This document shows, in pieces, positions 32,044-56,739 of a stretch of 64,000 nt of DNA. Origin of the DNA: a virus; IMG/VR virus record IMGVR_UViG_3300020159_001897, positions 2,399 through 66,398 of that record, one strand, 5' to 3'. The notes beneath the pieces were generated by a model. It did no database searches. It had not been told where the DNA came from and saw only the letters and a program-made list of their open reading frames with translations. The position numbers and the translations under genes were made by a program. The stretch's first letter is position 1. The number at the start of each line of letters is the position of its first letter.

Positions 32044-32175
32044 TGGACCACCTTGTGTTGTTGGCGGCGCTGACTTTGATGGCAGCAGTGTGGCTACGGG
32101 ACCATCCATAGATGGGACAGGCGACCTATACAGGTGATTAGAGGTAAAAAATGTGGGGAGGGCTCCCCCCGCAGA

Positions 32176-32284
32176 AACCCTAAACCTTTACTTGAGGGTT
32201 AGGGGGTGGGGGGTATCCCACCACTCTCAGTGGTCGCGGTTGTGGATAACTTGTGGATAACCTATCGAGACGAACACTTGTTCG
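32176..32284. promoter_or_regulatory. Island of host-type binding sites: FtsR-like MerR site, two DnaA boxes, one LexA box
   Basis: AACCCTAAACCTTTACTTGAGGGTT (32176); TGTGGATAA (32241, 32252); CGAACACTTGTTCG (32271). Confidence 0.7.
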
Positions 32285-32505
32285 CCTTGTCACTAGGCGC
32301 GTTGTGAGCCCGTCTAACGCGCGTGGCGCGGTGTTGTGTGTGTCTAAGCCTTATCGAGACTACGGCGCGTCTAGGCGCATTGTGGCGCGTCTCACGGGGT
32401 CAAGGGCAACGGCGCGCAAGTATCACGGGCAACGGTTCGCAAGGGTTCGCGGTGTTGGCGCGGTGTGTCACGCCGTCACGGGTTCGCGCGTTACGGGTTC
32501 ACGGG

Positions 32506-32553
32506 TAAAAAAAAATACCGCGCACACCATCACGCGGACGGTGTGCGCGGTAT
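32506..32553 (-). terminator. Intrinsic terminator closing the early region
   Basis: TACCGCGCACACC...GGTGTGCGCGGTA inverted repeat with a long U-tract on the minus strand. Confidence 0.8.
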
Positions 32554-32572
32554 TCGCGCGAGGTGCTACGGG

Positions 32573-33328
32573 TTACGCGAGGGGATACCGCGTCTCGCCG
32601 TTCACCTCATAGGCGCGGTCAAGTGTTCCGAACAATAGCGCGGTGGACGCGCTACAAGTGTAGGCGGTCTCGGTGTACACCTTCTCGGTGCGCACGGGTT
32701 CGCTAATTTCGTAAATCTCGCGCATACGGTCTAGGCGGTTGAGGTCATCGCACGAATATCCTTCACCGTTCCAAATTGCTGAGGCGTACCAAATAAGTCC
32801 TTCATCGTCCATACCTTGTGAGCCCATCGCGGTAAATCCGTTGAGGTCATTCATCGCGGTTAGGTGCTCATCGTGCGATGGGTCAAGCACCGCGCGCAAT
32901 AGGTTCACAAGTGACTGTGTCTCGCCGTGAGCCTCGCGCAATTCGTCCGCGTAGGCGTCCGCGTCATCGTGCTCAACAAGGTCACAACCGCCATCGGCGA
33001 GACGCTCACGCGCGTGAGCCAGGTCTGCCACTAGTGCGCGGTTGGTGTCGCGTAGTTCGCCGATAATGCGCGCGCTATCTGAGCATTCGGTGTTGAGTGC
33101 GCGGTATCCGCGAACAATGCGCGCTATCTGTTCGTCCTTGACAACCGCAACGGCTACGCCCGAACTAATCGCGCCAATGAACAACAACGCGCACACAATA
33201 AACAACGCGCTCATTAGGTCAATGTAGTGAGTGAGTAGGGCAACACTTGCCACCAATGCCACCAATGGCAACGGCGCGATTAGTGCGATTACTTTTTGCG
33301 GTTCGGTTAGGTTCTGTAACTTTTTCAT
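32573..33328 (-). CDS. Membrane protein with a coiled coil
   Basis: Two TM segments; AAAGGA RBS before MKKLQNL. The track's longer N-terminus runs through hairpins. Confidence 0.7.
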   Translation of the reverse strand: MKKLQNLTEPQKVIALIAPLPLVALVASVALLTHYIDLMSALFIVCALLFIGAISSGVAVAVVKDEQIARIVRGYRALNTECSDSARIIGELRDTNRALVADLAHARERLADGGCDLVEHDDADAYADELREAHGETQSLVNLLRAVLDPSHDEHLTAMNDLNGFTAMGSQGMDDEGLIWYASAIWNGEGYSCDDLNRLDRMREIYEISEPVRTEKVYTETAYTCSASTALLFGTLDRAYEVNGETRYPLA

Positions 33329-33474
33329 TTTGAGTAATTCCTTTTCTGTTTGGTTTGGTTTGGTTTGGTGAGTGTTGCCACTCTCACAACACTCACGCGC
33401 GAGGGGTTCGCGTGAGTGTTCTGAGAATGTCACCGCGCAAGGGGTACGCGGTGACACTCACAACGCCAACGGGG

Positions 33475-33735
33475 TCAGCCGTTGTAGTCAGCCTCAATAC
33501 GGCGCGACATTGGCACGGTGCGCGTAAGCACTTCACCGATAACAACGGCGTCAATTGGTGCTAGGTAGTAATCGCTAACGATTAGCGGTTGGTTGTTGTC
33601 CTGATAAACAACACTCTCAACGCTTACGGCGTCCTGACGGATACCCCAAACGCCGTGACGGTTGCGGTATGCGTAAGCGTTGCGAGGTAGCAACGCCAAT
33701 TCTTTAGTGGTGAATGGTGAACGGTTAGGTGACAT
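33475..33735 (-). CDS. Hypothetical early protein
   Basis: AAAGGA RBS; TTGCAA-N17-TATGAT promoter at ~33782-33810. Confidence 0.65.
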   Translation of the reverse strand: MSPNRSPFTTKELALLPRNAYAYRNRHGVWGIRQDAVSVESVVYQDNNQPLIVSDYYLAPIDAVVIGEVLTRTVPMSRRIEADYNG

Positions 33736-33990
33736 TGGGTAATTCCTTTTCTGTATGTTCGGCGGTTTTGCCGATACCCCATCATAGGCACAATATGCGA
33801 CAGTGTTGCAAGTCATTCGGGCACTTTTTCTAATTTTTTTCTATCTTTTCGCGCTATCCCGTCTAAGCCTTACGGGATAAGGGTTTGCGCGGTATCTGCC
33901 AATTTTCACGGCGCGCTATATATAGACACCGCGAGACGGCGCGCGAGACGGTGAGACGGGCAACGGCGCGCCACCGTGACGGCGCGAGGC

Positions 33991-34178
33991 TGTGGATAAC
34001 TTGCGAGGCTGTGGATAACTCAACCACTGAGAGTGTGATATATCAGCGCCGTGATATGTCGGTGATATATCAGCGGGGTTTGGGTGTCGCCGTGCGCGCG
34101 GGCGCGCCCGTGCCCCTGCGCGAAGAAAATGGTGTTCCAGACTGAATGATTTTATTTTGCGCTTCCGTTTCCTCGGGC
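33991..34178 (+). promoter_or_regulatory. Island: two DnaA boxes, two TGATATATCA palindromes, tripartite motif copy 1
   Basis: TGTGGATAA (33991, 34010); TGATATATCA (34036, 34063); GAAAATGGT-N13-TGATTTTATTT-N8-CGTTTCC (34125). Confidence 0.8.
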
Positions 34179-34595
34179 CATGTGTGCCCGCGCGCCCGTT
34201 TTGAGATTGCCCGCCGCCCTTGCGCCCTTGGCTCGACCCTCTGCGCCCTCACGCCAACGCCAGCACCCCGCGCCGCCTTTTTAGCGGAGCCTCTGCCCGC
34301 CGCCCCTGCCCTCCTCCTTCGGGGGTGTTGCTCGACGCCCTGGCGCCCTTGTTAGCCCTAGGCGCGCCCTGGGCTTCACAACTAAGCCCTAGGCGCGCCC
34401 TGGTGCGTCCTCGCGCCTACTTGCGCCCGCGTGCCCACAATACAAGCGCCACGATTAGGACGCTTGCGGTAGACACTGCAACGGCAGTACTCGCGTTGTA
34501 TATGTCAAGTGTTATCTGCATTTTTCTCCCTTCATTGGTATAAGTATATTATAGCACGCCCGCCAAGTATTTGCAACTTGACGGGCGAACTATTT

Positions 34596-34889
34596 TCAGA
34601 CGGTGACTAACTTACGCAGTCCGACTGGATAGCGCGCTACTTCGCCGTTCGCGCTGATACGGAATGAGCCCGCCGCCTCGCACGAACTCACGCCAGTCGC
34701 TTCATCGCGACTTACCAAGCGCCACACGGTGCCAGTGATACGGCAGTCCTCGTGCTGTCTGCGCGAGAGTTCCAGTGTGTAGCGGTTGCCGTCTACCTCG
34801 TAGACATTCTGCATACCCGTTGAGGCTAGGCAGATATGACGCCACGCATTGAATACCTCGTGCGCCTCACTTGTGTACGACTTGCCCAT
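34596..34889 (-). CDS. Hypothetical early protein
   Basis: GAAGGGA RBS; own promoter. Confidence 0.7.
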   Translation of the reverse strand: MGKSYTSEAHEVFNAWRHICLASTGMQNVYEVDGNRYTLELSRRQHEDCRITGTVWRLVSRDEATGVSSCEAAGSFRISANGEVARYPVGLRKLVTV

Positions 34890-35014
34890 TGTGTGTTCCC
34901 TTCATTAGGTTGGTTGTTACTAATACCATTATAGCATATCAAGTCGCGCACGACAACCCCAAATAATTATATCTTCGGGTTGCCAAATATGCGATAGTGT
35001 GCTATACTGTATAT

Positions 35015-35164
35015 ATGAACAACACACACAACTCACTCGCCAAGTGCGAGGGTGCGGACTGCACCAACCTAACCGACATCGTCCTCTGCGATACCTGCAC
35101 CGAGGACTACCTCTACGACTACGAACTCGCTCGCGAGGATAGGGCGGAGGCGCGGTTGCGCTGA
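35015..35164 (+). CDS. Small leaderless zinc-finger protein (49 aa)
   Basis: TTGCCA-N17-TATACT-N6-ATG; CEGADC...CDTC; GC hairpin after the stop. Confidence 0.7.
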   Translation: MNNTHNSLAKCEGADCTNLTDIVLCDTCTEDYLYDYELAREDRAEARLR

Positions 35165-35680
35165 CGCCAACGGCGGGCGGGGCGTGAGCCTCGCCAACCC
35201 GCGCGCCCTCCTCCCGTGATATATCAACGGCATATCACCAAACCCGCAACCCTCCTTCGCCCTGGCGCGAGCAAGCCCTCGGATAAGCCCTCAGTTAGAC
35301 AATTATTTGCGCGCTCAACACGGAGCCCTGGGTGAGCCCTCGCGACAACCCTGGGTGTGTGCGCCCGTGTCCCTCTGTGTTTTTTCTGAACGCCAACCCC
35401 GCGCGCCCTCCTGCGGATACGCCAACGCCACGCCCTGGCCCTCCTCCTTGCGGAGCCCTGGCGTGCCCTTGCGCCACCCTCGGGTGAGCCCTGGAGTGCG
35501 AAGCCCGCGCGCCTCTCCTCGGCTCTCTCCCTCGGTTGCTAGAACCTGCCTGCCCGTAGTCCCGCGAGCAAGTGTGCGATGGTCATCATCAGTCTCATTT
35601 GGTTTCCTTCCATTAGGTTATGTATATATTATAGCACGCCCCGCGAGCCTATGCAACCCGCGGGGCGACTATTTTCTAAA

Positions 35681-35923
35681 TTATTTTTTGACTGAAGCCC
35701 TCAACAATGCGTTGCGGATTTTGCCCATTCCAACCTTGTCGGAGTGTGAGCCCCAACCTTCGGATACTTGGGTCAGTTCGCCCTTGGTTAGTTCCGCCAT
35801 CAAGGTGGAGTAGTGGTAGATATGACGGGTGTTCTCGTCAATGTCTACCGCGCGCCACGATGACGCCTTGAATGAGCGCCCCGCCTTCACGGGCTTGGTT
35901 GCTAGGTCTGCTAATTTTGCCAT
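35681..35923 (-). CDS. Hypothetical early protein
   Basis: GGAAGG RBS, own promoter, W.S.SD..G motif. Confidence 0.7.
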   Translation of the reverse strand: MAKLADLATKPVKAGRSFKASSWRAVDIDENTRHIYHYSTLMAELTKGELTQVSEGWGSHSDKVGMGKIRNALLRASVKK

Positions 35924-36261
35924 TGAGTTGCCTTCCGTTCGGGGCTCGCTGGTTGCTTGCCCTTGTAATAATAGTATAGCATACTATGCCACACAATGCA
36001 ACCCAAACGGGCAGATTTTTCTAAACTATTTTGCCCTCAACGAGACGCGCCCTGGCGCCCCTCCTGCGGTGCAAGCCCTCGAACAAGCCCTCAGTTGGAC
36101 AATCCCTCGCGCTCACGCCCTGGAGCCCGTGGTGAGCCCTGGGTATCCCGCGGGGGTTGGTCGCAAAACTGCAGGGCAAGCCCTCCTGCGATTTCGTCCC
36201 CTGTTCAGGTATGCAGAAGCCCGCCCAGCGGGGGGGCTGGGCGGGCTCTGTGTTGGTCTTG

Positions 36262-36486
36262 CTACGCCGTCACTTCGGCAAGCGAACGGGCAACCGTTCC
36301 CGTGAAGGTTGGGCTAACCCAGCGCAACACAATCTTGCCTGCGATGCGGTCACGGATAACCGCTACCTTTGCGGACTTCTCCATAAAGGTCACGGCTTCG
36401 GTGAGCGTGTCAAACGACATCACCTTGACAAGTCCGCCATCGCCTTCATTGTCGTACTGCCAAGTAACTAGATACTGATTTTCCAT
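36262..36486 (-). CDS. Hypothetical early protein
   Basis: AAGGGAG RBS; TTGCAA-N17-TATACT; terminator hairpin at 36219-36248. Confidence 0.7.
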   Translation of the reverse strand: MENQYLVTWQYDNEGDGGLVKVMSFDTLTEAVTFMEKSAKVAVIRDRIAGKIVLRWVSPTFTGTVARSLAEVTA

Positions 36487-36605
36487 TTTGTTCTCCCTTG
36501 TTGTGTTGGTAATACAAGTATAGCACACTCTGCCACACTTTGCAACTCTTTTCTAAATTATTTTGCTAATTATTTTACGAAGTGGCTCCCGCCCGCCCCT
36601 TGGGG

Positions 36606-36809
36606 CTAGGACATAAAGTCCAGCGCCCTCTGCGCCCTCTGCTTCGCCCAAACCGTGCTGGCTTCCAGCGAGCCCGCGGTGTATGCGTGCCCGTAGTCCG
36701 CCACAAGTCCCGCGGGGTTCAGCCCGTCTAGGTACTCCACGATTTCCGAGAGTGCGTGTTCTAGGTCGGTGACCCTCGCCCTCAGTTGGTGTTCGGTGTA
36801 TGTTTGCAT
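36606..36809 (-). CDS. Hypothetical early protein
   Basis: GAGGGA RBS. Confidence 0.6.
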   Translation of the reverse strand: MQTYTEHQLRARVTDLEHALSEIVEYLDGLNPAGLVADYGHAYTAGSLEASTVWAKQRAQRALDFMS

Positions 36810-37061
36810 TTTGTTCCCTCTTTCCCTTTAGTAAAGTCCTCGGGCGATTTCTCGGTGCTGGTCTGCGATTTCGTCACAGAAACAATCGCAAGACCAAACC
36901 CCGCAGTCCTCGCAGGTTTGGATATCGTCCTCGGTGGTTGTGTTCGTTGTGTTTGTCATAATAATAGTATAGCACACTATGCTACACAATGCAAGCCAAT
37001 TTCCAAAGTAAATAAAACTTTTTCCGACCCGTCGCCCTTGCGCCCTCAGCCCGCGGGGCTC

Positions 37062-37241
37062 TTACAGCCAGTCCCCGCAGTTGGCGCAGATAGGGACATA
37101 CAACTTTTCCCAGTTGTCCTCGCGCCCGCCACGCCCTAGGTATGAGTGCTCAACGGTTGAGCCACAAACAACGAGTGCGCCCTCGTCGCTCACGCAATAG
37201 GCGGACAGTGTAATTTCGTGGTTGTTCAGTGTAATTGTCAT
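37062..37241 (-). CDS. Small leaderless zinc-ribbon protein
   Basis: TTGCGA-N17-TATACT immediately before the ATG; C...C...CANC. Confidence 0.6.
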   Translation of the reverse strand: MTITLNNHEITLSAYCVSDEGALVVCGSTVEHSYLGRGGREDNWEKLYVPICANCGDWL

Positions 37242-37884
37242 AAATACAGTATAGCACACTCTGTCACGCTTCGCAACTTATTTCTATATATTTTCGCTCG
37301 CCACCCTTGCGCGCCCTGCGCCACCCTGGCGCCCTCGCTTCCCGTGATAAGCCCTCAGTTAGACATTTTTTTCCACTCACTCCCTGGAGCCCTGGGACAC
37401 GGCTAATAGCCCGCGGGGTCGCCACTCCCGCGGGCTTGCGCCTTGCTTACTAGCCCTTAGTGAGGCACGCCGTTCCAGTATGGGCGTGGCTCTGAAGGCT
37501 CGTCGTACTCGTCATAACCCTCTGCTTCCAGCAATTCGTCTTCCCACCCTGGCTTCCACCCGTGGTCCAAGTCACCGTAGTTTGACATTTTGTTTCCTTT
37601 CGTTTGGTTGGTATATACAGTATAGCACTTTGTAGCACGATACGCAAATTATTCTTAGATATTTTTACCCGCGCCCTTAGCGTCCCTTGCGCCCGCGCGC
37701 CCTCGGACAAACCCTCAGTCTCGCAATTTGTTTTGCTGTCGCCCTGGAGCCCTGGGAACGCCCTGGGGCTAACCCTCGCGTTGGTCGCCCGCGTGCTCAA
37801 ACCCACCAGCCTCCGCCCGTGGGCGGGTACGCCAAAACCCAACCCGCGGGGGTGCGGGCTGGGTTGGCTCGGACTGGCTGCCGT

Positions 37885-38142
37885 CTAGCGGTAGTAAAGC
37901 CAATTCTTGCGGAAGGCTACTGCCGTGCCCTCGTAGTCGGCTTCGCTGTCGTTGCTGTATGCGCCAACCGTGACTGGTGCGATAACAAGCGTGTCGGGCG
38001 TGTCCTTCGCCGTGCGTAGCGCACGGTTGCTGGCGAGGGCATAGGTCAAGCCGTTGTCTCGGCTAACTGCCATCGTGGTTTTGGCTTGGCTTGAGTTTGT
38101 CAAGCCTGACCACTGAATATTGCTATTGCGTGCTGGTCGCAT
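37885..38142 (-). CDS. Hypothetical early protein
   Basis: GAAAGGG RBS; promoter at ~38183-38212. Confidence 0.55.
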   Translation of the reverse strand: MRPARNSNIQWSGLTNSSQAKTTMAVSRDNGLTYALASNRALRTAKDTPDTLVIAPVTVGAYSNDSEADYEGTAVAFRKNWLYYR

Positions 38143-38576
38143 ATTTCCCTTTCGCATAGGTACTTCGTTTTCCCTATATATATACTATAGCACACTCTGT
38201 CACACAACACAACCTAAAATAGAATTATTTTGGATATTCTTTTGATATATCACCGCCCTCGGCGTGGGCGAACAAGTGTTTGGGGGTCGGTTGCCGCGAT
38301 ATGCGCCCTCGTGCGATATTGTGCGAGTAAAAGTAAAATAAGCCCTCAGTCACGCAAAGTCCCGCGCGCCTCCCTCGGTGCGCCCTGGAGCGTCTAGCGA
38401 GCCCTCACGGCTTGGTCGGCGAACGCCAAAAAGTGACCCTGGCGCCCTCCCTCCCCGTGATATATCAAAGGAATATCAGTTTTTGACTTGACAAACTACC
38501 CTTGCGTAGCCTCTGCCCGCGGGGCAGGTACGCCAAAGCCCGCCCCGCGGGGGGGCGGGGCGGGCTCTCGGTCGTT

Positions 38577-38801
38577 CTAGGCGTTCGCTAGTTCTGATTT
38601 CTCAAACTCGGCGAGTTCGTTCACCATTTCGGCGATACGAATAAACATTTCCCTCTGCGCTGGTGTGTGGCTAAAGAGGGATACCGTTCCGCTAGTCGTG
38701 CCATTTTCCGATACGACTAGGCGAAGTACTGCCCAGTCCTCGTGGTCGCTAATCCGTGCCGTGAGTGTGGTGTCCTCGTTCAGCATTGCTGTGGTTTCCA
38801 T
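38577..38801 (-). CDS. Hypothetical early protein, possibly paralogous to 42908..43138
   Basis: GAAAGGA RBS; own promoter and terminator; F..TP.Q motif shared with 42908..43138. Confidence 0.7.
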   Translation of the reverse strand: METTAMLNEDTTLTARISDHEDWAVLRLVVSENGTTSGTVSLFSHTPAQREMFIRIAEMVNELAEFEKSELANA

Positions 38802-38965
38802 TGTGTTCCTTTCATTAGGTGATAATACAAGTATAGCACTTTATCGCATACCCCGCAACCTGTACGGGATATTTTTTTATTTATTTTTTGCGCCCTCGCG
38901 GAGCCTCTGCCCGCGGGGGTTCGGTTTGTCGGGCTGGTGATTAGCCAGCCCGACTACCTAACCGA

Positions 38966-39340
38966 TTAGGCTACTTGGGCAACCTTTGCCACTTTGGCTT
39001 CGGTCACTCGCACTTGGTTGTAGTGCGTAATTGTGACTACTGCCTGCTCGGTGGCTTCCGTGATTTCGCCAGCCTTGCGGGCAAGGTCAAAGGCTTTGTT
39101 ATCCACTGCCACTTTGGTCACGGCTTGGTAGGTGCTTGCGCTGATATGCTTCGCCAATTCGGCGACATCAAAGTTTCGGCGTTCTGCCGACACAAGCGCA
39201 ACGGTCACGCCGTCAATGGTCACGGACTTTTCGCCAGTCTCGGCTACTTCTGCCTCAAACTTAGCCTTTGCGCTTTCGTAGGCTTGCGTAGCAAGTTCCA
39301 CCGCACGCTTGGCGTTTATTAGGGTTTGTACTGTATTCAT
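38966..39340 (-). CDS. Hypothetical early protein
   Basis: GAAAGG RBS before MNTVQ; own promoter. Confidence 0.7.
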   Translation of the reverse strand: MNTVQTLINAKRAVELATQAYESAKAKFEAEVAETGEKSVTIDGVTVALVSAERRNFDVAELAKHISASTYQAVTKVAVDNKAFDLARKAGEITEATEQAVVTITHYNQVRVTEAKVAKVAQVA

Positions 39341-39446
39341 TAGGTACTGCCTTTCATTAGGTTCTGTCGGGCTTGTTCCCGACATATACAAGTGTAGCAT
39401 TTTCTAGCACGGCTCGCAACCTGTACGGGATAATTTCTTATTTTAT

Positions 39447-39665
39447 TTTTCCACAGACTTATCCACAGGCTGTGGATAACTTGCCCGCGGGGCTGTGGAT
39501 AACCCGCGCGCCCTGGCGCCCTCAGCCCCAGACCCTCAACCTCTACTTGAGGGTTAGGGTTTGTCTCAGACCGAACATATGTTCGCCCTTGGCCCCTCTC
39601 CGCCCTCGGAGAAAATGGTGTTCCATTTGTCTTGATTTTATTTTGCGCATCGTTTCCCTTGGGCC
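39447..39665 (+). promoter_or_regulatory. Island: DnaA-box cluster, FtsR-like site, LexA box, tripartite motif copy 2
   Basis: TTTTCCACA 39447, TTATCCACA 39459, TGTGGATAA 39471 and 39494; GACCCTCAACCTCTACTTGAGGGTT 39531; CGAACATATGTTCG 39572; motif at 39611. Confidence 0.8.
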
Positions 39666-39678
39666 CTGGGCCCGCGCG

Positions 39679-40020
39679 TCAGCAGTCCTCGTGCACCTCT
39701 CCGCCGTCTGTAATGCGCAGTACGCAGCCCTGGTGGCTTGTGAGGAATATCTGTTGCCCGATTTGCAGGTTGGTTCCGTAGGTCTCTACATTGTCGTCTA
39801 CGGCTACTTCCAGCGCACCTGTGCAGTTTGCCATCACGAGGTCGTAGATAGTGTCGCCCTCTTGCACGATATGTGGCGCAGGGTCGCAGGCGTACTGTGT
39901 CATTCGGTCATAAAAGTCGTTCCAAATGAGCAGGATAAGTGTCGTAAAGAATACCACTATGAGTGCTGTTACTAACCACTCTCGGCGTTCTAGTTGTGTT
40001 GTGTTCATTGTGTTCCTCAT
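39679..40020 (-). CDS. Membrane-anchored LysM-domain protein
   Basis: TM segment, then HIVQEGDTIYDLV...NLQIGQQIFL; leaderless start after TATAAT. Confidence 0.75.
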   Translation of the reverse strand: MRNTMNTTQLERREWLVTALIVVFFTTLILLIWNDFYDRMTQYACDPAPHIVQEGDTIYDLVMANCTGALEVAVDDNVETYGTNLQIGQQIFLTSHQGCVLRITDGGEVHEDC

Positions 40021-40032
40021 ATATATATTATA

Positions 40033-40446
40033 TCACATAATGTCTGATATTGCAACTGTTTCCCATTGCATTGTTTGTTTATTTACTATTTTTATTTTGT
40101 CTTGCTCGCTCGCGCTATCCCAACTGAACTCACAGCACGGAGTATCGCCCTCGCACGGGTGAAACCCAAAGCCTAGCGGGTTGCTTGCCACCTCTCCAAG
40201 CGAGATACCTAAACCCTTGAGCATTGACGGAAACTGACGGAATAGCGACACAGAGCAGTCGTGGCAGAACACCACACGCTCTCCTGAAGGCTTGTCCTCG
40301 TCCAGCGGAAGGTTGTCAATGAACCCTCCGTAGTACCCGAAGGTGAGAGGGAATATCTCTAGCCCGTTGTCGGGGTATCCCTCGCCCTGAAGGCGCTGTG
40401 ACGGAACCTGCTTGTTGCAGTTGTCGCATTTGGTTGTTGTTGTCAT
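40033..40446 (-). CDS. Cys-rich (Zn-binding) hypothetical protein
   Basis: CDNC, GYYGGF.D, FCHDC and HPC...CC motifs. Confidence 0.7.
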   Translation of the reverse strand: MTTTTKCDNCNKQVPSQRLQGEGYPDNGLEIFPLTFGYYGGFIDNLPLDEDKPSGERVVFCHDCSVSLFRQFPSMLKGLGISLGEVASNPLGFGFHPCEGDTPCCEFSWDSASEQDKIKIVNKQTMQWETVAISDIM

Positions 40447-40521
40447 AAATAAAAATGTCCCCTCTCCGCCCTTCGGCGGGTTAGTTGCCCGCGGGCGCTT
40501 CTCGTCCCGCGGGCTACTCCT

Positions 40522-40701
40522 TTACCGTCCCTCAATTACTCGTGGAACTTCTGCACCACAAGCCCACTCGGCGATACGACCCCACGGACGGCAGTCGCAG
40601 TGAATGCAACGGGCTTCCTCGTAGTCGTACTGGTGGCTATCTCGGTTTGCTATGCGCTGTTCTTGCGAGCCAGCGAACAACATTGGCATATCTACCTGCA
40701 T
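40522..40701 (-). CDS. Small zinc-finger protein (59 aa)
   Basis: Manual read H...CIHCDCRPWG...C; GAAGGGA RBS; own promoter. Confidence 0.6.
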   Translation of the reverse strand: MQVDMPMLFAGSQEQRIANRDSHQYDYEEARCIHCDCRPWGRIAEWACGAEVPRVIEGR

Positions 40702-41090
40702 TGGGTTTCCCTTCGTTTGTTTGGTACTATTATATTATATCACGCTCTAGGCGGAATTGCAACCTTGCTCGTAGTAATCTGTTCCTAGATAATCTAAGGC
40801 GCAGGTGTTGCAGACCAGTTCTTTGGTATGCGGGTCTTTGTAGTCCTCGTCCTCGCCAACGCCCCACGGCGCTGTGCAGATTGAGCAGACCCTCTGCTGG
40901 CTAATCATCTAGCCAGTCGTCAAGGTCGCCCCATTCCTCAAGTGTCGGGGCTGGCTTGCGCTTGCCCTGAATGGTTGAGGCACGAAGTCTGTCTCCGTCA
41001 CGGAAGGCTTGGCGGTCTGCCTCGCCCCACGCTTTGTGGTTTTGGTTTTTCATTGTTTTTCCCATAAGTATATTATAGCACCCTTTCTTG

Positions 41091-41282
41091 CTAATTGCAA
41101 CTATTTATTTCTATTTCATTTGTCGGCAACCAGCCGAACCAGTCGGTACGCATTGAGTGAACCAGTATCCAGCCCTGCTTGTTTCCGTTCATCTCGTGCG
41201 TGAACTCAGTGCCGTTTTCCTTTACCCTGTTCCTCGTGCGCCGTGTGGCGTTGCTGTTTGCTGTAATTGTTATTGTTTCCAT
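41091..41282 (-). CDS. Small leaderless early protein
   Basis: TTGCAA-N17-TATAAT directly before the ATG; RTRNRVKENG...WFGWLP. Confidence 0.65.
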   Translation of the reverse strand: METITITANSNATRRTRNRVKENGTEFTHEMNGNKQGWILVHSMRTDWFGWLPTNEIEINSCN

Positions 41283-41352
41283 AAGTATATTATACCACAC
41301 TCTCTTACACTTTGCAACACGCCAGCAGAAGCCCGCGCGTCCCCTGTTGCCC

Positions 41353-41893: not shown

Positions 41894-41896
41894 AGA

Positions 41897-44236: not shown

Positions 44237-44378
44237 TTTGTTACCTTTCTTGTTGAGTTACTAACATTGTACCCAAAGGGTGTTACAGAGTTTCTAACCC
44301 GCTAGAACCTCATATATAAATTATCCCACAGTTCGGGGTCTGTGTCAAATCAAACTGCCACATTATCTGATATTCCTC

Positions 44379-44505
44379 TGATATATCACGGCGAGGTTAC
44401 TGGCTGGTAAGCGAACACTTGTTCGCCCTCACCCTGGCCCCTCTCCGTGAGAAAATGGTAAGAATAACTAAATGATTTTATTTAGTGCGCTCCGTTTCCT
44501 CGGGC
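44379..44505 (+). promoter_or_regulatory. Island: TGATATATCA, LexA box, tripartite motif copy 3
   Basis: TGATATATCA 44379; CGAACACTTGTTCG 44412; motif at 44451. Confidence 0.8.
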
Positions 44506-44560
44506 TGGGTGGCAAGGGCGGGTAGGGAAGAAAGGAATAAGTCCCTACCCGCACCAAACT

Positions 44561-47109: not shown

Positions 47110-47275
47110 TGATATATCACAGTGACCCGTGCGCCCTGGCCCCCACGCCTAAACCTAAAGTAGAGGTTGAGGGTTTATCTCAGGTAGAGGTTGAGGGTTA
47201 TATATGCCCCTCTCCGTAGAGAAAATGGTAAGAAGAACTGATTGATTTTATTTCGCGCTACCGTTTCCCTTGGGC
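47110..47275 (+). promoter_or_regulatory. Island: TGATATATCA, two tandem FtsR-like sites, tripartite motif copy 4
   Basis: TGATATATCA 47110; AAACCTAAAGTAGAGGTTGAGGGTT 47151 and a variant at 47175; motif at 47221. Confidence 0.8.
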
Positions 47276-47481
47276 TACTCGAGCCCGCGCCACGCAGTTG
47301 CTGAACGACGCGCCAGCCTCGCAGTAAAGCAAGGGAATGGTGTGCCGCAGTAAATGCAGTGTGGGTCTTTCCCGCCATCTGTTGAGTGCGGTGCCGACAT
47401 CATATGAATCGTTGACTGCAGTCTGTTGATTACAATGTCTCTTGGGTCTACTTCAATATAATTTTCTTCGTTGTCTTCCAT
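47275..47481 (-). CDS. Small zinc-finger protein
   Basis: H...CIYCG.PFPC; AGGAG RBS. Confidence 0.65.
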   Translation of the reverse strand: MEDNEENYIEVDPRDIVINRLQSTIHMMSAPHSTDGGKDPHCIYCGTPFPCFTARLARRSATAWRGLE

Positions 47482-47508
47482 TTGTCTCCTAGTTGGAATG
47501 TGATGGGG

Positions 47509-48132
47509 CTATTGCCCCACCATCACTTCCATTGTCGCTTCGTGTAGTGCGCTTTCAAGTGCTTCGTACACTTCTTCCATCGCTTGGTCGTGCTTCTCCA
47601 TTGAGGCATCATCGTCCCAGTCGTATTCGGGCAGATTATTTAGGCTTATACTATTTTCAGAAATCTCTTCTCCGCCTTTGTATAATTCCCAGCCAGCAAA
47701 ACCCATTCCCTCTTCGGTGTACCAAACGCCAAATGCAAGCGTAGGGAATTGCGCCGAGATGCGCTGAATGAGACCACGAGCAGGCGACCAAGCCGACTGA
47801 TAGGCGAATGTAATGTCGTGGTAGTCCTCTTTGTCAAGAACTTCGTGCCACGCTCCATTCGGTTGAATGTCGTATGCGCCCCATTTAGTTCCCCACACAT
47901 CTATTGCGTTCTGATAGCCGTCAAAGCCATCTTCTGCATTTGAGAATGCGCTGAAAACTTGCTCAGTGCCGTCTTCTTTTTCCCAGCGAACTTCTTTGCT
48001 TGCTCGTGGGTCTAGCGGTACGAGTTTGTTGAAGTTGTAATCGTTTCCGCCTTCGTGGGTTTCCGAGACAAAACGCCTTAGTTCCTTTTTGTCTCCTGTA
48101 ATTGTAAGTCTATTATCGCAATGATTTGGCAT
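47509..48132 (-). CDS. DUF1281/YubB-like protein (ferredoxin-like fold)
   Basis: MPN.C.N.L.I, WGTKW, SAWSP and Y.EEG..FAG motifs. Confidence 0.8.
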   Translation of the reverse strand: MPNHCDNRLTITGDKKELRRFVSETHEGGNDYNFNKLVPLDPRASKEVRWEKEDGTEQVFSAFSNAEDGFDGYQNAIDVWGTKWGAYDIQPNGAWHEVLDKEDYHDITFAYQSAWSPARGLIQRISAQFPTLAFGVWYTEEGMGFAGWELYKGGEEISENSISLNNLPEYDWDDDASMEKHDQAMEEVYEALESALHEATMEVMVGQ

Positions 48133-48318
48133 TAGTTTCTCCTTTGTTGGTTTATGTTATATTCTATTATACCAGTTCTACTGATGTTTCGCAACTCATT
48201 AGGCAAAGTCTTATGTCTAATAGTAAGTCGGTCATTTCAGCAGACGATACAAGTGATTGCCCCGCTATTTTTTGTATTGCTCCATCTACAAGTTGAGTCG
48301 CTTGCACTAAGGATTCGT

Positions 48319-48522
48319 TCACGAATATTCTCCTATGTCTAGAAATCCCGTGCCGTTACCCTCGGGGTCAGCCATAACAATAGCGTATGTGTCGTCAGTG
48401 AATTCAAGTACGGCAGTTGGGTTGCTATTTTTATACCAACCGAGTTGTTCGTACTCCTCGTCCCCCAGGCTCCGCACCCCCGCGATTGTTTTTCCGATAA
48501 GTGTTTCTGCGTAGTGGCTCAT
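48319..48522 (-). CDS. Hypothetical protein
   Basis: L.GKTI..V...D.EGNG.G motif; coupled to the upstream gene. Confidence 0.65.
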   Translation of the reverse strand: MSHYAETLIGKTIAGVRSLGDEEYEQLGWYKNSNPTAVLEFTDDTYAIVMADPEGNGTGFLDIGEYS

Positions 48523-48782
48523 AGGGCTATCTCCATCTTTACTGGTGCTGATGCGAGCAACTCTGCATAGACGGGTGAGGCGTATGCTTCGCCGTCTTTG
48601 GTGATGGTGAACACTGGCTCCCAAAAGTTGCCACTGCGAACCCTTGCGCTCAGTTCTGTGCCCTCTTTCCAGTTCTTGGTGACGAACTCAACTGCCTCTA
48701 CGACATCGTAGAACCACTCCTCGCGCGCCATTGTCAAGACCACGCGAATTGCTGGTGAGCCGTACATTCTTGGTTTTCTCAT
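48519..48782 (-). CDS. Hypothetical early protein
   Basis: AAGGAG RBS; own promoter. Confidence 0.65.
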   Translation of the reverse strand: MRKPRMYGSPAIRVVLTMAREEWFYDVVEAVEFVTKNWKEGTELSARVRSGNFWEPVFTITKDGEAYASPVYAELLASAPVKMEIAL

Positions 48783-48955
48783 TGGTTTCTCCTTTGTTGT
48801 CATTGGGTATGTATATATTATATCAGGTTGTGCAGGCGATTGCAACCTCTGCTAAAAGATTTTATTTCGCCGTCCCCTACCCCTGCCGCATTTTTTCAAA
48901 TTTGGCGGGCGGGCTATCGGGCCCGACAGTTTCCCATCGGGCCCGACCGCTAGTG

Positions 48956-49996
48956 CTACAGGCTCGCTAGAGCCTGCAACACTTTCGTATCTGCCGTACC
49001 AGTAGAACCGCTAAGAGCGTTGAGCATATTGCGCTCTACTCGGTTCTTGTCAGTGCCAGCCTTGTGATGGTTGTAGGTGTTGTAAGCCTGCAACACTCCC
49101 AACGCTGAACCCTTCCACGGTGCTACTCGCATATCGTTAGCGTAGAGGTCTTTCAACGCCCAACGCTTATTCTCTGCACGAGTGATTGCCGTCTTCATTT
49201 CAAGGTCGGTCGGTACTGGTACTAACTGGTTGAGCAGTGTGTTCCACTGTTCGTCCGTTACTTTCCATTCCGACAACTTTGTAATCTCTGCGATTACATC
49301 GTCAGTCATTTTGTGAATAATTCCAAGCGCATCACGAGCCGATTGAATTTTCAATGCGCTGTGCTTTGAGTGGCGAGCCTTGAATTGCTCTCCATCTTCG
49401 CCCATCGCCATTGAGTGTGTGTTGTCGCAGACCACGAAGGTAGAAACCTTCTTGTAGGTCGTTGCCAATGTCCCAATGTGGCTAGTTGTTGCAAGTAAGT
49501 GCGGACGAACCTTGAAGCCGTCAATGACTTCAATGCTTTCGGGCATTTCAAGCGACACCCAAGCAACTCCGCCATTCTTCAACAAGCCTGCAGAACCGAT
49601 TGCCAACTCGTCATCTACGAGGTTTGCGAGGTTCTTTACGAGCCAGTCGTTGTACTGGTGGATTGCGTAGCCATCTTTGAAGATTTCAAACAGGTCGTTT
49701 GTGTCATCTCGCAGGATTGCTTTACGGTTTTCAGCCTTGATGAACTTGACGGGATTTCCGTTTTCGTCCACGCTGGTTGCATCGTCCATCGTTGCTGGCA
49801 CTTGAATGAACACTGGGGCTTCTTGTGCCGACCAAGCGAACAGCCTGCGCTGTACATCTTCAACAGGGATTGCTCCTGCATAATGGTTCGGCTCATCGCC
49901 TTGTGCATCTTTCTTGTAGTGCCACGCATTTCCACGCTGGTCGGTCATACCAACCAAAATCTGCGTGTTGTACCACTCGGTAGTTTCCATTCCCAT
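48956..49996 (-). CDS. DUF932 / TIGR03299-family phage-plasmid protein
   Basis: AWH, SAG.L..G...W, LL..TSH.G, VVCDNT and G...G..QA motifs. Confidence 0.85.
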   Translation of the reverse strand: MGMETTEWYNTQILVGMTDQRGNAWHYKKDAQGDEPNHYAGAIPVEDVQRRLFAWSAQEAPVFIQVPATMDDATSVDENGNPVKFIKAENRKAILRDDTNDLFEIFKDGYAIHQYNDWLVKNLANLVDDELAIGSAGLLKNGGVAWVSLEMPESIEVIDGFKVRPHLLATTSHIGTLATTYKKVSTFVVCDNTHSMAMGEDGEQFKARHSKHSALKIQSARDALGIIHKMTDDVIAEITKLSEWKVTDEQWNTLLNQLVPVPTDLEMKTAITRAENKRWALKDLYANDMRVAPWKGSALGVLQAYNTYNHHKAGTDKNRVERNMLNALSGSTGTADTKVLQALASL

Positions 49997-50169
49997 TTTA
50001 TTGCTCCTTTGTTAGTTTGTTGTTTGATTACTTACTGATACTATTGTATCACTTTATCGCAGGCTTTGCAACCCGTACAGAAGGTTTTTTTTATTTCTTC
50101 TCGATAACTTGATAATTCAATTCTATCGGGACATTGCCAAAACACCAACCTCAAAATAAAATTATCGGG

Positions 50170-50307
50170 TGATATATCACGGCTTAGTGCTAAATAGACC
50201 CGCGCGTCCCCTGTGGTTATTGTCTTTCAACTGTTTTGTTCCCTGCCCGAGGAAAATGGTGTTCCAGAGTAATTGATTTTATTTTCGCACTCCGTTTCCC
50301 TTGGGGC
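50170..50307 (+). promoter_or_regulatory. Island: TGATATATCA and tripartite motif copy 5
   Basis: TGATATATCA 50170; motif at 50252. Confidence 0.8.
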
Positions 50308-51101: not shown

Positions 51102-51226
51102 GGTTAAGGTGTGGTTAAGGGACGGTTATATGTACGGTTATGGGTGACAGTATGCCACCCCTAGAGGTGACAAATTGCCACTGGGGGGTGACAGTATGCC
51201 ACTAGGGGGGTGTCAGGATGTCACCT
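51102..51226. repeat. Iteron-like array: four ~22-bp units plus four phased GGTTA
   Basis: GTG(A/T)CA-N3-TG(C/T)CAC at 51144, 51167, 51188 and 51210. Confidence 0.8.
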
Positions 51227-51587
51227 CAGAGTCGCCTTCATCTTCTTCAAAATGCTTTGAACTTCCGCTATTCAAGAGCCTTTGTGCCCTTAAAATAAGA
51301 CTTCGTTCACGGGCTGACTTGCCACCCCATATTCCGAATCGTTCTGATGACTCTAATGCTGATTCTAAACAATCGTGTCTTACCACGCACTCCTTGCAAA
51401 TGCTTTTGGCGCGCCTTAACTTCTCTACATCGCCAGGGGCGGGATAGAAAGTAGTTGTCGGTTCATCTTTGCAGTTAGCCTGCTTTGTCCATGCTGGTCG
51501 TTCGATACGGAAACCCGTACCTGACTCCCACTCTGTTTGGGCATAGCGTTGCTTGGGCGCACGGTAAGAATCCCAAGGGCTAGACAT
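51213..51587 (-). CDS. whiB: WhiB-family Fe-S transcription regulator
   Basis: W...A.C, AK.IC..C.V...CL..AL and GIWGG.S..ER motifs. Confidence 0.92.
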   Translation of the reverse strand: MSSPWDSYRAPKQRYAQTEWESGTGFRIERPAWTKQANCKDEPTTTFYPAPGDVEKLRRAKSICKECVVRHDCLESALESSERFGIWGGKSARERSLILRAQRLLNSGSSKHFEEDEGDSEVTS

Positions 51588-54202: not shown

Positions 54203-54324
54203 TGATATATCAGACGGTAAAATAAAAGAACACCACATCTACTGGGTGGGTTGTCCCCTCTCCAGCGAGAATATGGTGTTCCAAAACGAATGATTTTATT
54301 TAGTGCTGCCGTTTCCCTCGGGCC
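54203..54324 (+). promoter_or_regulatory. Island: TGATATATCA and tripartite motif copy 6
   Basis: TGATATATCA 54203; GAATATGGT-N13-TGATTTTATTT-N8-CGTTTCC at 54269. Confidence 0.8.
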
Positions 54325-54572: not shown

Positions 54573-54609
54573 GTCTCCATACTGCCACTTTAAATCGTAT
54601 AGTTTTTAA

Positions 54610-54849
54610 CTATCCGACCCAGCGCCCGAACACTGTGTAGCCTTCGCCCTCGCTGCGAACCAACCACTCGGTTCCAGGGTAACGCTTTTTATATTGCTGC
54701 GCCTTTGAGTGACCCGTGCGCGCAGTATTGCCTGCACTGTACACAGCCCATGTGTTAGGACTTGCCATCAGTTGTTCTACGAACTTACGAACCTGACCTG
54801 GCGAGCCGTTTTTTGGCGTTGGTGGATTGCGAAATTCTATCGCTGTCAT
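54610..54849 (-). CDS. Hypothetical protein
   Basis: L...P..WA...V..R..G pattern; AGGAG RBS; own promoter. Confidence 0.7.
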   Translation of the reverse strand: MTAIEFRNPPTPKNGSPGQVRKFVEQLMASPNTWAVYSAGNTARTGHSKAQQYKKRYPGTEWLVRSEGEGYTVFGRWVG

Positions 54850-54923
54850 TGTATTCTCCTATTATTGTTGGTTTATTGAGTATTGCTTATTACACTGTAC
54901 ATGCTGATATATCAGATTGCAAC

Positions 54924-55388
54924 CTAGAAGGGAAGATTATCCCACTTTCCTTCGCGCTCACAATCAAATACATTTACTCCTAACGAGGTATACATCTCGC
55001 GCGTGCGATTGTTTGACTCGATAGCAAAATATTGTTTAGGGTTATCTCCGTACATCGGAAATACTTTTTCAAGTACTTGCTTCTTTTTTACCAGAGGTGC
55101 TTCCGAGCCAGAAATGCCAGTGTCATTGAACATTGCATGGTTCGGCGACCACTGGTTTGTGTCCCAGATTCGCTTCAAGGTTGGGCGCGCCCACTTCTGG
55201 TCACGAGCGGTAATTAGAATTACATACTCGTCACGAAGCAGGTCGACCATCCAGTCGCGATACTCCTCGACTTCCTTGACAAAGGTCTCGAAGTTGTGAT
55301 GACGCATTTCTTTAAAATTACTTGACAGCGCGACATTCAAATCCATGAGGATAATCCTGTCGATATGCTTGCGTCGCTTCTGTTCCAT
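54924..55388 (-). CDS. HAD-fold protein (PNKP-phosphatase-like, degenerate motif I)
   Basis: IILMDLN, LITAR, K and AIESN motifs. Confidence 0.55.
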   Translation of the reverse strand: MEQKRRKHIDRIILMDLNVALSSNFKEMRHHNFETFVKEVEEYRDWMVDLLRDEYVILITARDQKWARPTLKRIWDTNQWSPNHAMFNDTGISGSEAPLVKKKQVLEKVFPMYGDNPKQYFAIESNNRTREMYTSLGVNVFDCEREGKWDNLPF

Positions 55389-55741
55389 TATTTTATTCTA
55401 CCTTGTCTTTTTTGCCTGTTGTTATAAGTTCCATCTCCACAACTCTCGTTGAGTGTTTTTCTGGATTATTGCACGTCGGCGGGTAGGTGGAACTAATCGT
55501 TCCAGCCGTCACCCCGCAAACCGCGCACTTCCAGTTGTATGGCATCTTGCTCACCAGTCGTTTCCTCCGTCATATCCGTATGCTCCGCCTTGTAGCAGAA
55601 TTCCAGTAAGAAGATACTCCATACTGCTCATTCCGTGCACACACATGTCGCATACCATAGAGCCGTCTTCAAATTCGTAGACAGTCATGGCTGGCATGCA
55701 GCATGTATCGCACTCGATGTAATGCTTACTTTGTAGGTGAG

Positions 55742-56056
55742 TTACGGTGTATGACCCGAGTTGTGTTGCCTGATTACGGTTGTTACGGGGCCGTTTTTTA
55801 CGCTTCCGTTCCATTGTTTGTTGTAACTCCTTGCAATTTGACTAGGGCTTGCGCCACCGATGTATCTGTACCAACCCAAGATGTGCTTTAGCATTGTCAA
55901 CGACGCTCTCACGAACGCTAAGACAAAGAAAAAAGCAAATAGTTGTGGGTTTTGGTCGGCGAACATCAATCCGACGAGCATCAGCGTGCCCACCTGAAGG
56001 AATGTTCCAATTCCTGGCATTGTCCAAATAAGAAACTGTTTACTTAGATATTTCAT
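55742..56056 (-). CDS. Membrane protein
   Basis: Two TM segments; GGAG RBS. Confidence 0.6.
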   Translation of the reverse strand: MKYLSKQFLIWTMPGIGTFLQVGTLMLVGLMFADQNPQLFAFFFVLAFVRASLTMLKHILGWYRYIGGASPSQIARSYNKQWNGSVKNGPVTTVIRQHNSGHTP

Positions 56057-56358
56057 ATTTCTCCATTATGTTAGGTCTCCGAGTGTACAGGTTGCATCTT
56101 TCTGTCACAACCTGCTATCCGTAATATATCAGAGATTCCCGTAGAACTCACTAAAACTATTCCAGTTTTCGTCGTCCTCTTGGTCGAGTCCGTTCTTTAG
56201 ACACCAGTAGGCATATGCATCCATTTTTAATTTCATTTCAGCAACTGCTTCTGGCGAAACATTAAACATAACTATATCCATTATTCACCTCCTTCATTGG
56301 GTTGACTTCAGTATACCAGCCCAATCGCACATTCACAACATTGTGCGTAATATTTCGG

Positions 56359-56556
56359 TGATATATCACAGACTATAATATTAAATAAATGCGCTTTGCC
56401 CACCGTCTGGATAGATTTGTCCCCTGCACCCTGAGAAAATGGTGTTCCAGATGCCATGATTTAATTTTGCTTTTTCTGGCTTTAATCTGGGGGCGGCCGA
56501 AGAAAATGGTGTTCCATCGGCTGTGATTTAATTTACTCGCCGCCCGTTTCCTTAGA
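56359..56556 (+). promoter_or_regulatory. Last island: TGATATATCA and tandem tripartite motif copies 7 (partial) and 8
   Basis: TGATATATCA 56359; motifs at 56435 and 56502. Confidence 0.8.
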
Positions 56557-56739
56557 CCTGTTAGAGGTCTTATAGAAGCCGCCACCCCTAAAGGCAATCC
56601 CTACATGCCCGTATACACGCTTCACAGGCCCTACAGCGCGCGTAACTGGATGAGGGAGTACTTCATAGGCATCTTCCCTAATACCTTGCGCCATTTCGAC
56701 TTCCGCACCATCTTCAAATCTATATACATATACAGGCAT
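56533..56739 (-). CDS. FmdB-like small regulator lacking the zinc cysteines
   Basis: MP.Y.Y...KRV....GI.F.G.GFY.T..R; leaderless after TATAGT. Confidence 0.6.
   Translation of the reverse strand: MPVYVYRFEDGAEVEMAQGIREDAYEVLPHPVTRAVGPVKRVYGHVGIAFRGGGFYKTSNRSKETGGE

Follow-up and report, generated by a model that had tools for sequence, protein, structure and literature searches.

The viral DNA considered here (the window: 64,000 nucleotides, bases 2399-66398 of the 66,398-bp IMG/VR record IMGVR_UViG_3300020159_001897) contains an arm of small early genes that is divided by eight non-coding islands, near 32.2, 34.0, 39.5, 44.4, 47.2, 50.2, 54.2 and 56.4 kb. Seven of them carry a polar element that faces the same way at every place and recurs throughout a family of related phages. 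The array is real and conserved and, as a cis-regulatory layout, apparently undescribed. Tentatively, and judging from sequence, we regard the islands as transcription-control regions between operons: the core of the element may be a phage-specific, polar protein site, and the predicted boxes for host proteins beside it may act as modulators or titrators.

The heart of the element is a bipartite core of 31 bp, AWATGGT-N14-GRWTTWATTT. It occurs eight times in the window, always on the plus strand, as compared to 0.00 matches expected from 100 shuffled sequences. The tripartite polar motif which an earlier sequence-only reading of this DNA had seen in seven islands is thus real. With its flanks the element measures about 75-85 nt: to the left a C-rich block (CCCCT...) lies 8-12 nt from the core, and to the right CCGTTYCC(Y)TYGGG follows at 7-10 nt. 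The two blocks of the core keep their distance strictly; 43 aligned copies from six genomes do not display any insertion or deletion between them. The eight cores are spread over seven islands at the borders between minus-strand early operons, and the 56.4-kb island has a tandem pair, 67 nt apart. From core to core the spacing is 5486, 4840, 2770, 3031, 4017, 2166 and 67 nt. The periodicity that had been claimed for the islands therefore does not hold: they follow each other irregularly, at 2.2-5.5 kb. At six of the seven islands the element overlaps the stop codon of the preceding operon or lies up to about 90 nt from it; at the 34-kb island the distance is about 225 nt.

Two relatives of 70-90% nucleotide identity, G005 and G006, have eight copies each at corresponding places; variants of the second block read CGGGTTTATTT in G005 and AGGTTTTATTT in G006. 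More distant phages (G008-G011) were found via their WhiB gene. The strict core pattern, searched on both strands, is confined to one strand in each of them (nine copies in G008, six in G009, four each in G010 and G011). A looser pattern, applied to the oriented plus strand only, yields 13 copies in G008, 12 in G009 and 11 in G011. In the distant phages, too, the array starts at a boundary built from a G-run and TAT, with DnaA and LexA boxes beside it. The distance from the core is kept across lineages, at 239-258 nt for the DUF932 gene and 209-247 nt for the KTSC gene. The sequence-only reading had asked, as a test, whether the islands are confined to one arm and outlast the turnover of the genes between them, and so it turned out: by tblastn, the distant genomes matched just 20 of the 55 open reading frames (ORFs) of the arm. 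A mobile repeat, of the type of miniature inverted-repeat transposable elements or repetitive extragenic palindromes, was considered and dismissed; the copies are syntenic in the window phage, G005 and G006, and are linked to the same genes in the distant lineages, and cellular genomes do not contain the element above chance level.

The orientation of the element follows the axis of the genome even where the local genes change strand. In the distant relatives the last copies precede plus-strand genes, among them those of a 2OG-Fe(II) oxygenase, an HNH endonuclease and a 177-residue HExxH protein. The gene for the latter is conserved, and its ATG follows the end of a copy by 29-30 nt in both G008 and G009; G011 has a matching copy. 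This metalloprotease-like protein (its motif being HEIAH) is encoded at 19035-19568 on the plus strand of locus L112, with a homologue at 23956-24468 of the oriented G008 contig. A scan of metagenomes yielded 118 stretches with the element, and in 19 of 19 multi-copy loci all copies are on a single strand. For 46 of 83 metagenome copies the sole neighbour is a convergent minus-strand ORF that ends at most 130 nt away. In prokaryotes (one genome for each of 185,579 species) four single matches in unrelated taxa were obtained. Since this number is of the same order as a rough chance expectation, the element is specific to these phages.

Along the minus strand, an island begins with the stop codon or hairpin of the upstream operon. 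The polar element comes next, then the host boxes, if there are any, a palindrome with its half-site, the promoter and, finally, the ribosome-binding site and the first gene. The promoter is of the sigma-70 type and lies 20-100 nt beyond the palindrome. To the left of the element, sites resembling leftward promoters are more frequent than in shuffled sequences (0.35 versus 0.12). Many of the small genes of the arm have a consensus promoter, TTGCAA-N14-TGnTATAAT. The statement that almost every gene has a promoter of its own was overstated, as 24 minus-strand sites of at least 10/12 serve some 55 ORFs. Repeated cassettes (families D1-D6) are found at 34537-50101, for instance at 41834-41893, 42569-42628 and 43168-43227. 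They consist of a G+C-rich hairpin with a TTGCAA -35 in its loop, followed by TGnTATAAT. On the plus strand, T-runs come after the cassette hairpins and give them the look of canonical terminators, although the arm has no supported plus-strand genes.

The palindrome of the islands, TGATATATCA, has 12 exact copies, all of them within 34036-56359. With up to one mismatch 14 copies are counted versus 1.82 expected, and none of 100 shuffles reaches 14. The palindromes reported left of the element are, accordingly, real and enriched; they are, however, no privilege of the eight islands, because five of the 12 lie elsewhere (35217, 38243, 38458, 43539 and 54905). In 14 of 14 tabulated distant loci (L034-L045) not a single copy of TGATATATCA was detected. 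The distant lineages have other palindromes at the corresponding place. Palindromes that differ between lineages at one and the same place are as expected of operators for lineage-specific regulators.

The sites predicted for host proteins are of three kinds. The DnaA box TTATCCACA has seven exact copies and, with up to one mismatch, 29 versus 15.1 expected. The LexA box CGAAC-N4-GTTCG has three exact copies and, with up to one mismatch, seven versus 1.73 expected. Three FtsR-like sites deviate in three of 25 positions from the motif AACCCTAAAGTAAAGGTTGAGGGTA, given for Corynebacterium glutamicum in PMC6683498; shuffled sequences gave 0.18 matches even with up to seven mismatches allowed. In keeping with the sequence-only reading, which saw DnaA and LexA sites only in the islands nearest 32 kb, the exact DnaA boxes are limited to 32.2, 34.0 and 39.5 kb and the exact LexA boxes to 32.3, 39.6 and 44.4 kb. 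DnaA, LexA and FtsR-like sites concentrate in the third of the arm nearest the 32.2-kb boundary. Also the remark that the boxes keep apart from -10 and -35 elements could be confirmed at the level of sequence; no exact DnaA or LexA box and no FtsR-like site coincides with a listed promoter hexamer. Promoter hexamers flanking the three FtsR-like sites were not found, unlike the position between -35 and -10 reported for ftsZ P1 of Mycobacterium tuberculosis.

The palindrome TGATATATCA and the DnaA, LexA and FtsR-like sites are present in G005 and G006, too. In the distant relatives host boxes again lie near the boundary, and all six LexA boxes of G008 and all five of G011 are inside the arm. Among 96 metagenome copies of the element, a LexA box lies within 62 nt to the left in seven and a DnaA box in two. 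With so few of them nearby, the boxes must be regarded as accessory.

The 32.2-kb island is a peculiar one. It is situated between two minus-strand terminators and contains the word CCTATACAG, an FtsR-like site, the G-run with TAT, a palindrome, two DnaA boxes, a LexA box and iteron-like G+C-rich repeats. The core pattern and the promoter scan revealed neither a polar element nor a recognisable promoter in it. The boundary proper, i.e., CCTATACAG, a variable stretch and the G-run with TAT, is found at the same place in G002, G004, G005, G006, G008, G009 and G011. In the window (32125-32216) the G+C content jumps at this boundary, and it is also here that plus-strand and minus-strand genes converge. 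By its sequence, this non-coding boundary is a candidate packaging or end signal. An assembled DNA contig crosses 31692-34182, and hence 32.1 kb, without a break. Such breaks as do occur in contigs are at or near repeats, where they are to be expected, and the RNA run leaves parts of the window uncovered; neither observation is given any weight here. The last gene of the arm encodes a membrane protein of 251 residues. Two hydrophobic helices form its N-terminal part, the coiled coil in the middle is variable, and the C-terminal ...GTLD.AY....T.YPL is invariant; homologues were seen only on contigs of up to 141.7 kb. The idea that it is a replication initiator was abandoned in view of the hydrophobic helices and because the label "regulator of replication initiation timing", given by one source, rests on the variable coiled-coil part.

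As to the genome at large, the minus strand of 1-29.9 kb encodes the small and large terminase, portal, protease, major capsid and fibre proteins (according to PHROGs and Pfam). Four plus-strand genes follow at 29.9-32.04 kb and a long series of small minus-strand genes at 32.5-58.1 kb. Between about 38 and 57 kb the minus strand is the coding one, as the substitutions relative to G005 and G006 are mainly at third codon positions of its ORFs. Conserved plus-strand ORFs right of the elements of the window were considered and rejected: the substitution phase points to the minus strand, and the plus-strand ORFs acquire stop codons in the relatives. A WhiB-family gene and the FtsR-type sites argue for an actinobacterial host. 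The sequencing runs that contain the window sequence are mostly metagenomes from freshwater and lakes. The record is classed as linear and 59% complete; also the related records are all classed as linear, without end repeats. The relative G004 extends by 38.8 kb further to the left, with genes for tape-measure, tail-tube, helicase, O-like initiator and ParB-like proteins. By tblastx, the window from 57 to 64 kb does not overlap with the left 40 kb of G004, and the genome could not be closed. Because of this missing overlap, it should comprise at least some 105 kb. We read the window from 32.1 to 58.1 kb as the early arm, of the host-takeover type, of a siphovirus of freshwater Actinobacteria. 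The closest cultured relatives of its large terminase subunit (TerL) are those of psiM2/psiM100 (about 46%) and of Gordonia phages of about 90 kb (44%). Packaging of psiM2 is presumably headful and then leads to permuted ends. A megablast search of the window from 32 to 44 kb did not match any cultured phage.

What the element is not can be stated more readily. No Rfam family reaches its threshold, and RNAalifold, applied to 26 copies, did not find a consensus structure on either strand. The folding energy is barely below that of shuffled sequences, with mean z-scores of -0.74 (plus) and -0.63 (minus). Imperfect inverted arms flank the core, but the cognate pair is the best one in only five of 40 copies on the plus strand and ten of 40 on the minus strand. 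Cognate arms that do not pair better than non-cognate ones argue against a selected helix. In the absence of a conserved RNA fold, the element more likely works as DNA. A sigma-70/sigma-A promoter was also rejected: none of the eight cores is among the listed promoter sites, and the best alignment by eye, TGGTGT-17-TATTTN, has a variable last base. Nor is the element an intrinsic terminator; a G+C-rich hairpin with a U-run is not found inside the cores, and separate hairpins stand beside some copies. A general plus-strand sigma-A promoter left of the element can be discarded as well (0.14 of 57 copies versus 0.12 in shuffles). Sites for sigma-54, extracytoplasmic-function and SigF-type sigma factors and for integration host factor, as well as Zur and NrdR boxes, do not fit when their consensus is compared by eye.

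An invariant spacer, a single orientation per genome, phage specificity and the position at operon borders fit a protein-read site that acts on transcription. Protein binding, the transcriptional effect and every role of a host protein in what follows are inferred. Along the plus strand, an island comprises the leftward sigma-A-type promoter of the next operon, putative operators in the form of lineage-specific palindromes, host boxes and the phage-specific element. The host boxes, predicted to bind DnaA, LexA and FtsR with high affinity, are confined to the third of the arm nearest 32.2 kb. The element, family-wide and with its invariant core spacer, adjoins the end of the operon before it, at the stop codon or a terminator, and a sequence-specific protein would read its core and act one-way on transcription. 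This reader may be a DNA-binding protein of the phage, or else the host RNA polymerase, redirected by a factor that the phage supplies; the conserved WhiB-like protein is one candidate. WhiB proteins bind to region 4 of sigma-A, which makes a retargeting in the style of MotA and AsiA conceivable. In 101 of the 105 ORFs of at least 100 residues in G009, neither a phage RNA polymerase nor a phage sigma factor was recognised; two WhiB genes were found.

Such transcriptional control could be exerted in two ways. The core may be a factor-dependent rightward promoter that sends counter-transcription into the finished early operon and, in some lineages, might drive the plus-strand genes at the far end of the arm. 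Alternatively, it may insulate each leftward promoter from upstream as a polar barrier, and the conserved distance to the leftward genes fits this version. The host boxes would couple the islands to the occupancy by DnaA, LexA and FtsR, or would drain these proteins. Weak support comes from the hairpin-plus-T-run terminators of the arm, of which ten are on the plus strand and five on the minus strand, though the genes are on the latter.

There are, of course, objections to a role in transcription. The core is unlike sigma-70/sigma-A hexamers in both orientations, and no alternative sigma factor was found. At least eight antisense promoters would be unusual, and the candidate -10 of such a promoter is poor. 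In three plus-strand gene contexts a sigma-A-like site (9/12) lies upstream of the element, so that the latter is not necessarily the promoter in these cases. A barrier looks redundant in two islands, because the element is already preceded by a canonical terminator at 50.3 kb and by a hairpin at 44.5 kb. An orientation bound to the genome axis fits DNA entry, packaging or replication equally well. Finally, host boxes that come without promoter or element, as at 32.2 kb, are not explained by a purely transcriptional view.

These very boxes have nothing to regulate, which keeps titration and a DnaA-dependent origin alive as explanations; the two are mutually compatible. An origin or loading site for the host replisome at 32.2-34.0 kb, perhaps also at 39.5 kb, appears unlikely, if by no means far-fetched. 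DnaA boxes are paired there, and the repeats GGGCAACGG, GAGACGG and GTCTAAGCCTTA are shared by both sides of the last two genes of the arm. No DNA polymerase was seen in the G009 ORFs mentioned, so host replication proteins are probably used. The O-like initiator gene, however, is far away (5889-6584 of G004, locus L013), the product of the gene that separates the box clusters is a membrane protein instead of an initiator, and inspection by eye, in place of a systematic search, did not reveal an AT-rich stretch for unwinding next to the boxes. An origin concerns the DnaA boxes only and would explain neither the LexA and FtsR sites nor the polar element. Titration, which concerns the boxes and not the polar element, would mean that DnaA, LexA and FtsR are withdrawn as phage DNA accumulates; replication initiation would be blocked, the SOS response de-repressed and ftsZ transcription lowered. 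Boxes at or near consensus that are kept at the same islands in relatives, that avoid predicted -35 and -10 hexamers and that, in the case of LexA in G008 and G011, are all within the arm would suit such a decoy. Yet a genome copy offers just three LexA, three FtsR and seven DnaA sites, and the rarity of LexA and DnaA boxes next to metagenome copies marks them as accessory. On the basis of these sequence features, we consider the decoy rather unlikely.

The sequence-only reading had favoured staged DNA entry. The 32.2-kb boundary would be the leading end, and at the elements with bound DnaA, LexA and FtsR the DNA would pause or be ratcheted in, one after the other, so that the two-step transfer of phage T5 would have a counterpart with many stops. 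Entry predicts confinement to one arm and conservation despite gene turnover, and both were found. A conserved non-coding boundary opens the arm in every lineage, and the host boxes cluster near it in the window and in the relatives. The 32.2-kb island has FtsR, DnaA and LexA sites and lacks a promoter, and the orientation of the element ignores the direction of local genes. If packaging starts near terS and proceeds along the structural genes, the arm would be packaged last and ejected first. The injection-stop region of T5 is described in bioRxiv 10.1101/866236 as having eight DnaA boxes, repeats and palindromes. Against this stand the unbroken DNA contig across 31692-34182, the DnaA boxes in clusters of two, two and three over 7.3 kb instead of one T5-like cluster, and the fixed distances to conserved genes and operon borders, which pausing does not require. 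The T5 model itself is a hypothesis, and psiM2, with psiM100 and the Gordonia phages the nearest TerL relative in culture, is presumably a headful packager with permuted ends. All in all, entry is decidedly unlikely. We give very little credence to its extended form, in which the arm is a platform for multi-stop entry and hijacking, where bound host proteins would hold the DNA and be drained from the chromosome. If it were true, replication initiation, SOS repression and ftsZ activation would be turned off in a set order, block by block, each during the expression of the early genes of its block. It is equally very unlikely that the element serves the DNA axis in another way, by marking one-strand nicks as in T5, in packaging or in protection of DNA ends. 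Its single orientation, independent of local gene direction, would agree with that, as would the specific one-strand nicks of T5-like phages (PMC10644984) and the C-rich words, extremely strand-biased, which are found throughout the first 8 kb of the arm (GCGCCCT: 22 on the plus strand, none on the minus strand). Against it speak the length of the element, its attachment to operon borders and the variation of the words between lineages. An RNA signal, be it a nut- or put-like antitermination site, a processing site or a small RNA on one transcript, is extremely unlikely. The imperfect inverted arms around the core and the location in a probable 5' leader in plus-strand gene contexts would favour it; RNAalifold, z-scores, arm pairing and Rfam were all negative.

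The coordinates of the features are compiled in Table 1.

Table 1. Features of the early arm, in window coordinates
Feature	Position	Strand	Remarks
CCTATACAG word	32125..32133	+	about 75-80 nt left of G-run; kept in all lineages
Hairpin and T-run terminator	32155..32170	-	closes the minus-strand early arm
FtsR-like site	32176..32200	-	3/25 mismatches
G-run, then TAT	32202..32216	+	left arm boundary; conserved in 8/8 relatives examined
Two consensus DnaA boxes	32241..32260 (starts 32241, 32252)	-	11 bp apart
LexA (Cheo-type) box	32271..32284		
Strong intrinsic terminator	32513..32555	-	after last early gene
Gene of 251-residue membrane protein	32573..33328	-	conserved C-terminal ...TRYPLA motif; last gene of arm
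Iteron-like GAGACGG x3 and GGGCAACGG	33933..33966	+	GGGCAACGG again at 32404 and 32427
Two consensus DnaA boxes	33991..34018 (starts 33991, 34010)	-	
Two TGATATATCA palindromes	34036..34072		half-site between them
Polar element copy 1	34107..34179	+	core 34127-34157
Three consensus DnaA boxes	39459..39502 (starts 39459, 39471, 39494)	one +, two -	
FtsR-like site	39531..39555	-	3/25 mismatches
LexA box	39572..39585		
Polar element copy 2	39593..39664	+	core 39613-39643; adjoins stop codon of gene 39679-40020
Sigma-70-type promoter TTGACA-17-GATAAT	44320..44348	-	KTSC-domain operon
TGATATATCA palindrome	44379..44388		adjoining half-site
LexA box	44412..44425		
Polar element copy 3	44433..44506	+	core 44453-44483
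TGATATATCA palindrome	47110..47119		
FtsR-like site	47151..47175	+	second partial copy after it
Polar element copy 4	47203..47275	+	core 47223-47253
Sigma-70-like site TTGCCA-17-TAAAAT	50134..50162	+	10/12; just left of palindrome
TGATATATCA palindrome	50170..50179		
Polar element copy 5	50234..50306	+	core 50254-50284; 258 nt from DUF932 gene start
WhiB-family gene	51213..51587	-	E 4e-20; actinobacterial-host marker; putative trans-acting factor
TGATATATCA palindrome	54203..54212		
Polar element copy 6	54251..54323	+	core 54271-54301
TGATATATCA palindrome	54905..54914		inside promoter spacer TTGCAA-17-TACAGT, a classical operator position
TGATATATCA palindrome	56359..56368		
Polar element copy 7	56417..56467	+	core 56437-56467; without CCGTT block
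Polar element copy 8	56484..56558	+	core 56504-56534; tandem with copy 7

A comparison with established systems reveals partial likenesses. Like the present islands, the injection-stop region of T5 (iss) is non-coding and combines DnaA boxes with repeats and palindromes (bioRxiv 10.1101/866236); strong early promoters of the host type, in a phage that is a large siphovirus, are a further common trait. In T5, however, it is one locus with its eight boxes inside the terminal repeat; here seven boxes in three clusters are combined with LexA and FtsR sites and with a separate polar element that is repeated 8-13 times. In the Pfam and PHROGs scans of the arm no pre-early gene named after A1 or A2 showed up; these scans were not aimed at A1 or A2. 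Stoperators are sites of 13-14 bp bound by the immunity repressor of temperate phages. Those of Cluster A mycobacteriophages are, like the present elements, numerous, asymmetric and intergenic, and act on transcription elongation (PMC9283540), an action that is predicted here. Unlike stoperators, the element has a bipartite core of 31 bp within about 80 bp and is restricted to the early arm. All its copies share one strand, and this orientation is kept where local genes change strand (before the plus-strand genes of G008 and G009). Neither a repressor nor an integrase was recognised in Pfam and PHROGs scans of the window or among the ORFs of G004 and G009. The stoperator-like roadblock that had been named as an alternative nevertheless overlaps with the transcriptional control proposed above.

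In the middle promoters of T4 a MotA box near -30 replaces the -35 element, and a phage factor on sigma region 4 (AsiA) retargets the host polymerase. If TATTTN were the -10, the block ATGGTGTTCC would likewise be centred near -31. No homologue of MotA or AsiA was found, though, the candidate -10 is poor with an unconserved last base, and what lies ahead of most copies is a convergent gene with its 3' end towards them, not the start of a coding gene. The host-takeover module of SPO1 consists of small operons with strong promoters, and its TF1 occupies specific sites and shuts off early transcription. The present arm is likewise made of many small strong-promoter operons; in contrast to SPO1, an HU-like gene was not identified, there is no sign of modified bases, and the site sequences are unrelated. 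The hairpins with a -35 in the loop and TGnTATAAT before small ORFs resemble the PeSL (promoter-early stem-loop) cassettes of T4-type phages, a likeness that concerns the promoters within the blocks and not the polar element or the host boxes. A short palindrome that is scattered over a replicon with ParB-family proteins (ParB-like genes are present in G004), and whose distance to promoters varies, is reminiscent of the KorB operators of plasmid RK2 and the dispersed centromere sites of phage N15; unlike these, TGATATATCA is lineage-specific and missing from the tabulated distant loci. Full-text searches did not retrieve a description of such a composite array. Passages of PMC10914622 mention no more than whiB-encoding actinophages.

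The element thus provides an uncultured, widespread family of large freshwater actinobacterial phages with a defining cis-element that is better conserved than most of the surrounding genes. The phage carries near-consensus sites for three master regulators of its host, DnaA for replication, LexA for the SOS response and FtsR for ftsZ and cell division. The 31-bp core, the islands and the conserved WhiB-like protein are testable probes for the timing of early expression and for interference with the host cell cycle.

A few minor observations may be added. The G+C content declines along the arm; it is about 57% at 32-38 kb and only about 42% at 52-54 kb. A G+C-rich repeat of 88 nt (family D9) has four copies, at 35246-35333, 36046-36133, 37310-37397 and 37670-37757. 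The strand-biased 7-mer GCGCCCT has its 22 plus-strand copies of the first 8 kb of the arm at 34222-39516, mostly in non-coding G+C-rich stretches; in the whole window the count is 27 versus one. A Chi-like role or one at the RNA level is conceivable. Other lineages have different C-rich words with an equally extreme strand bias.

Beyond the arm, the minus strand encodes a peptidase resembling HslV and the proteasome (57430-58140), a protease of 573 residues (60048-61769), which has no relatives among viral contigs, and a ferredoxin-like protein (63224-63865). At the other end of the window, the minus-strand gene of a fibre-like protein of 2082 residues (1182-7430) is characterised by recurring DNA words, e.g., CAAACTTTG with 18 copies. 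They are mostly spaced by about 120 nt or multiples thereof, and the repeats extend into the 2.4 kb of the contig that precede the window.

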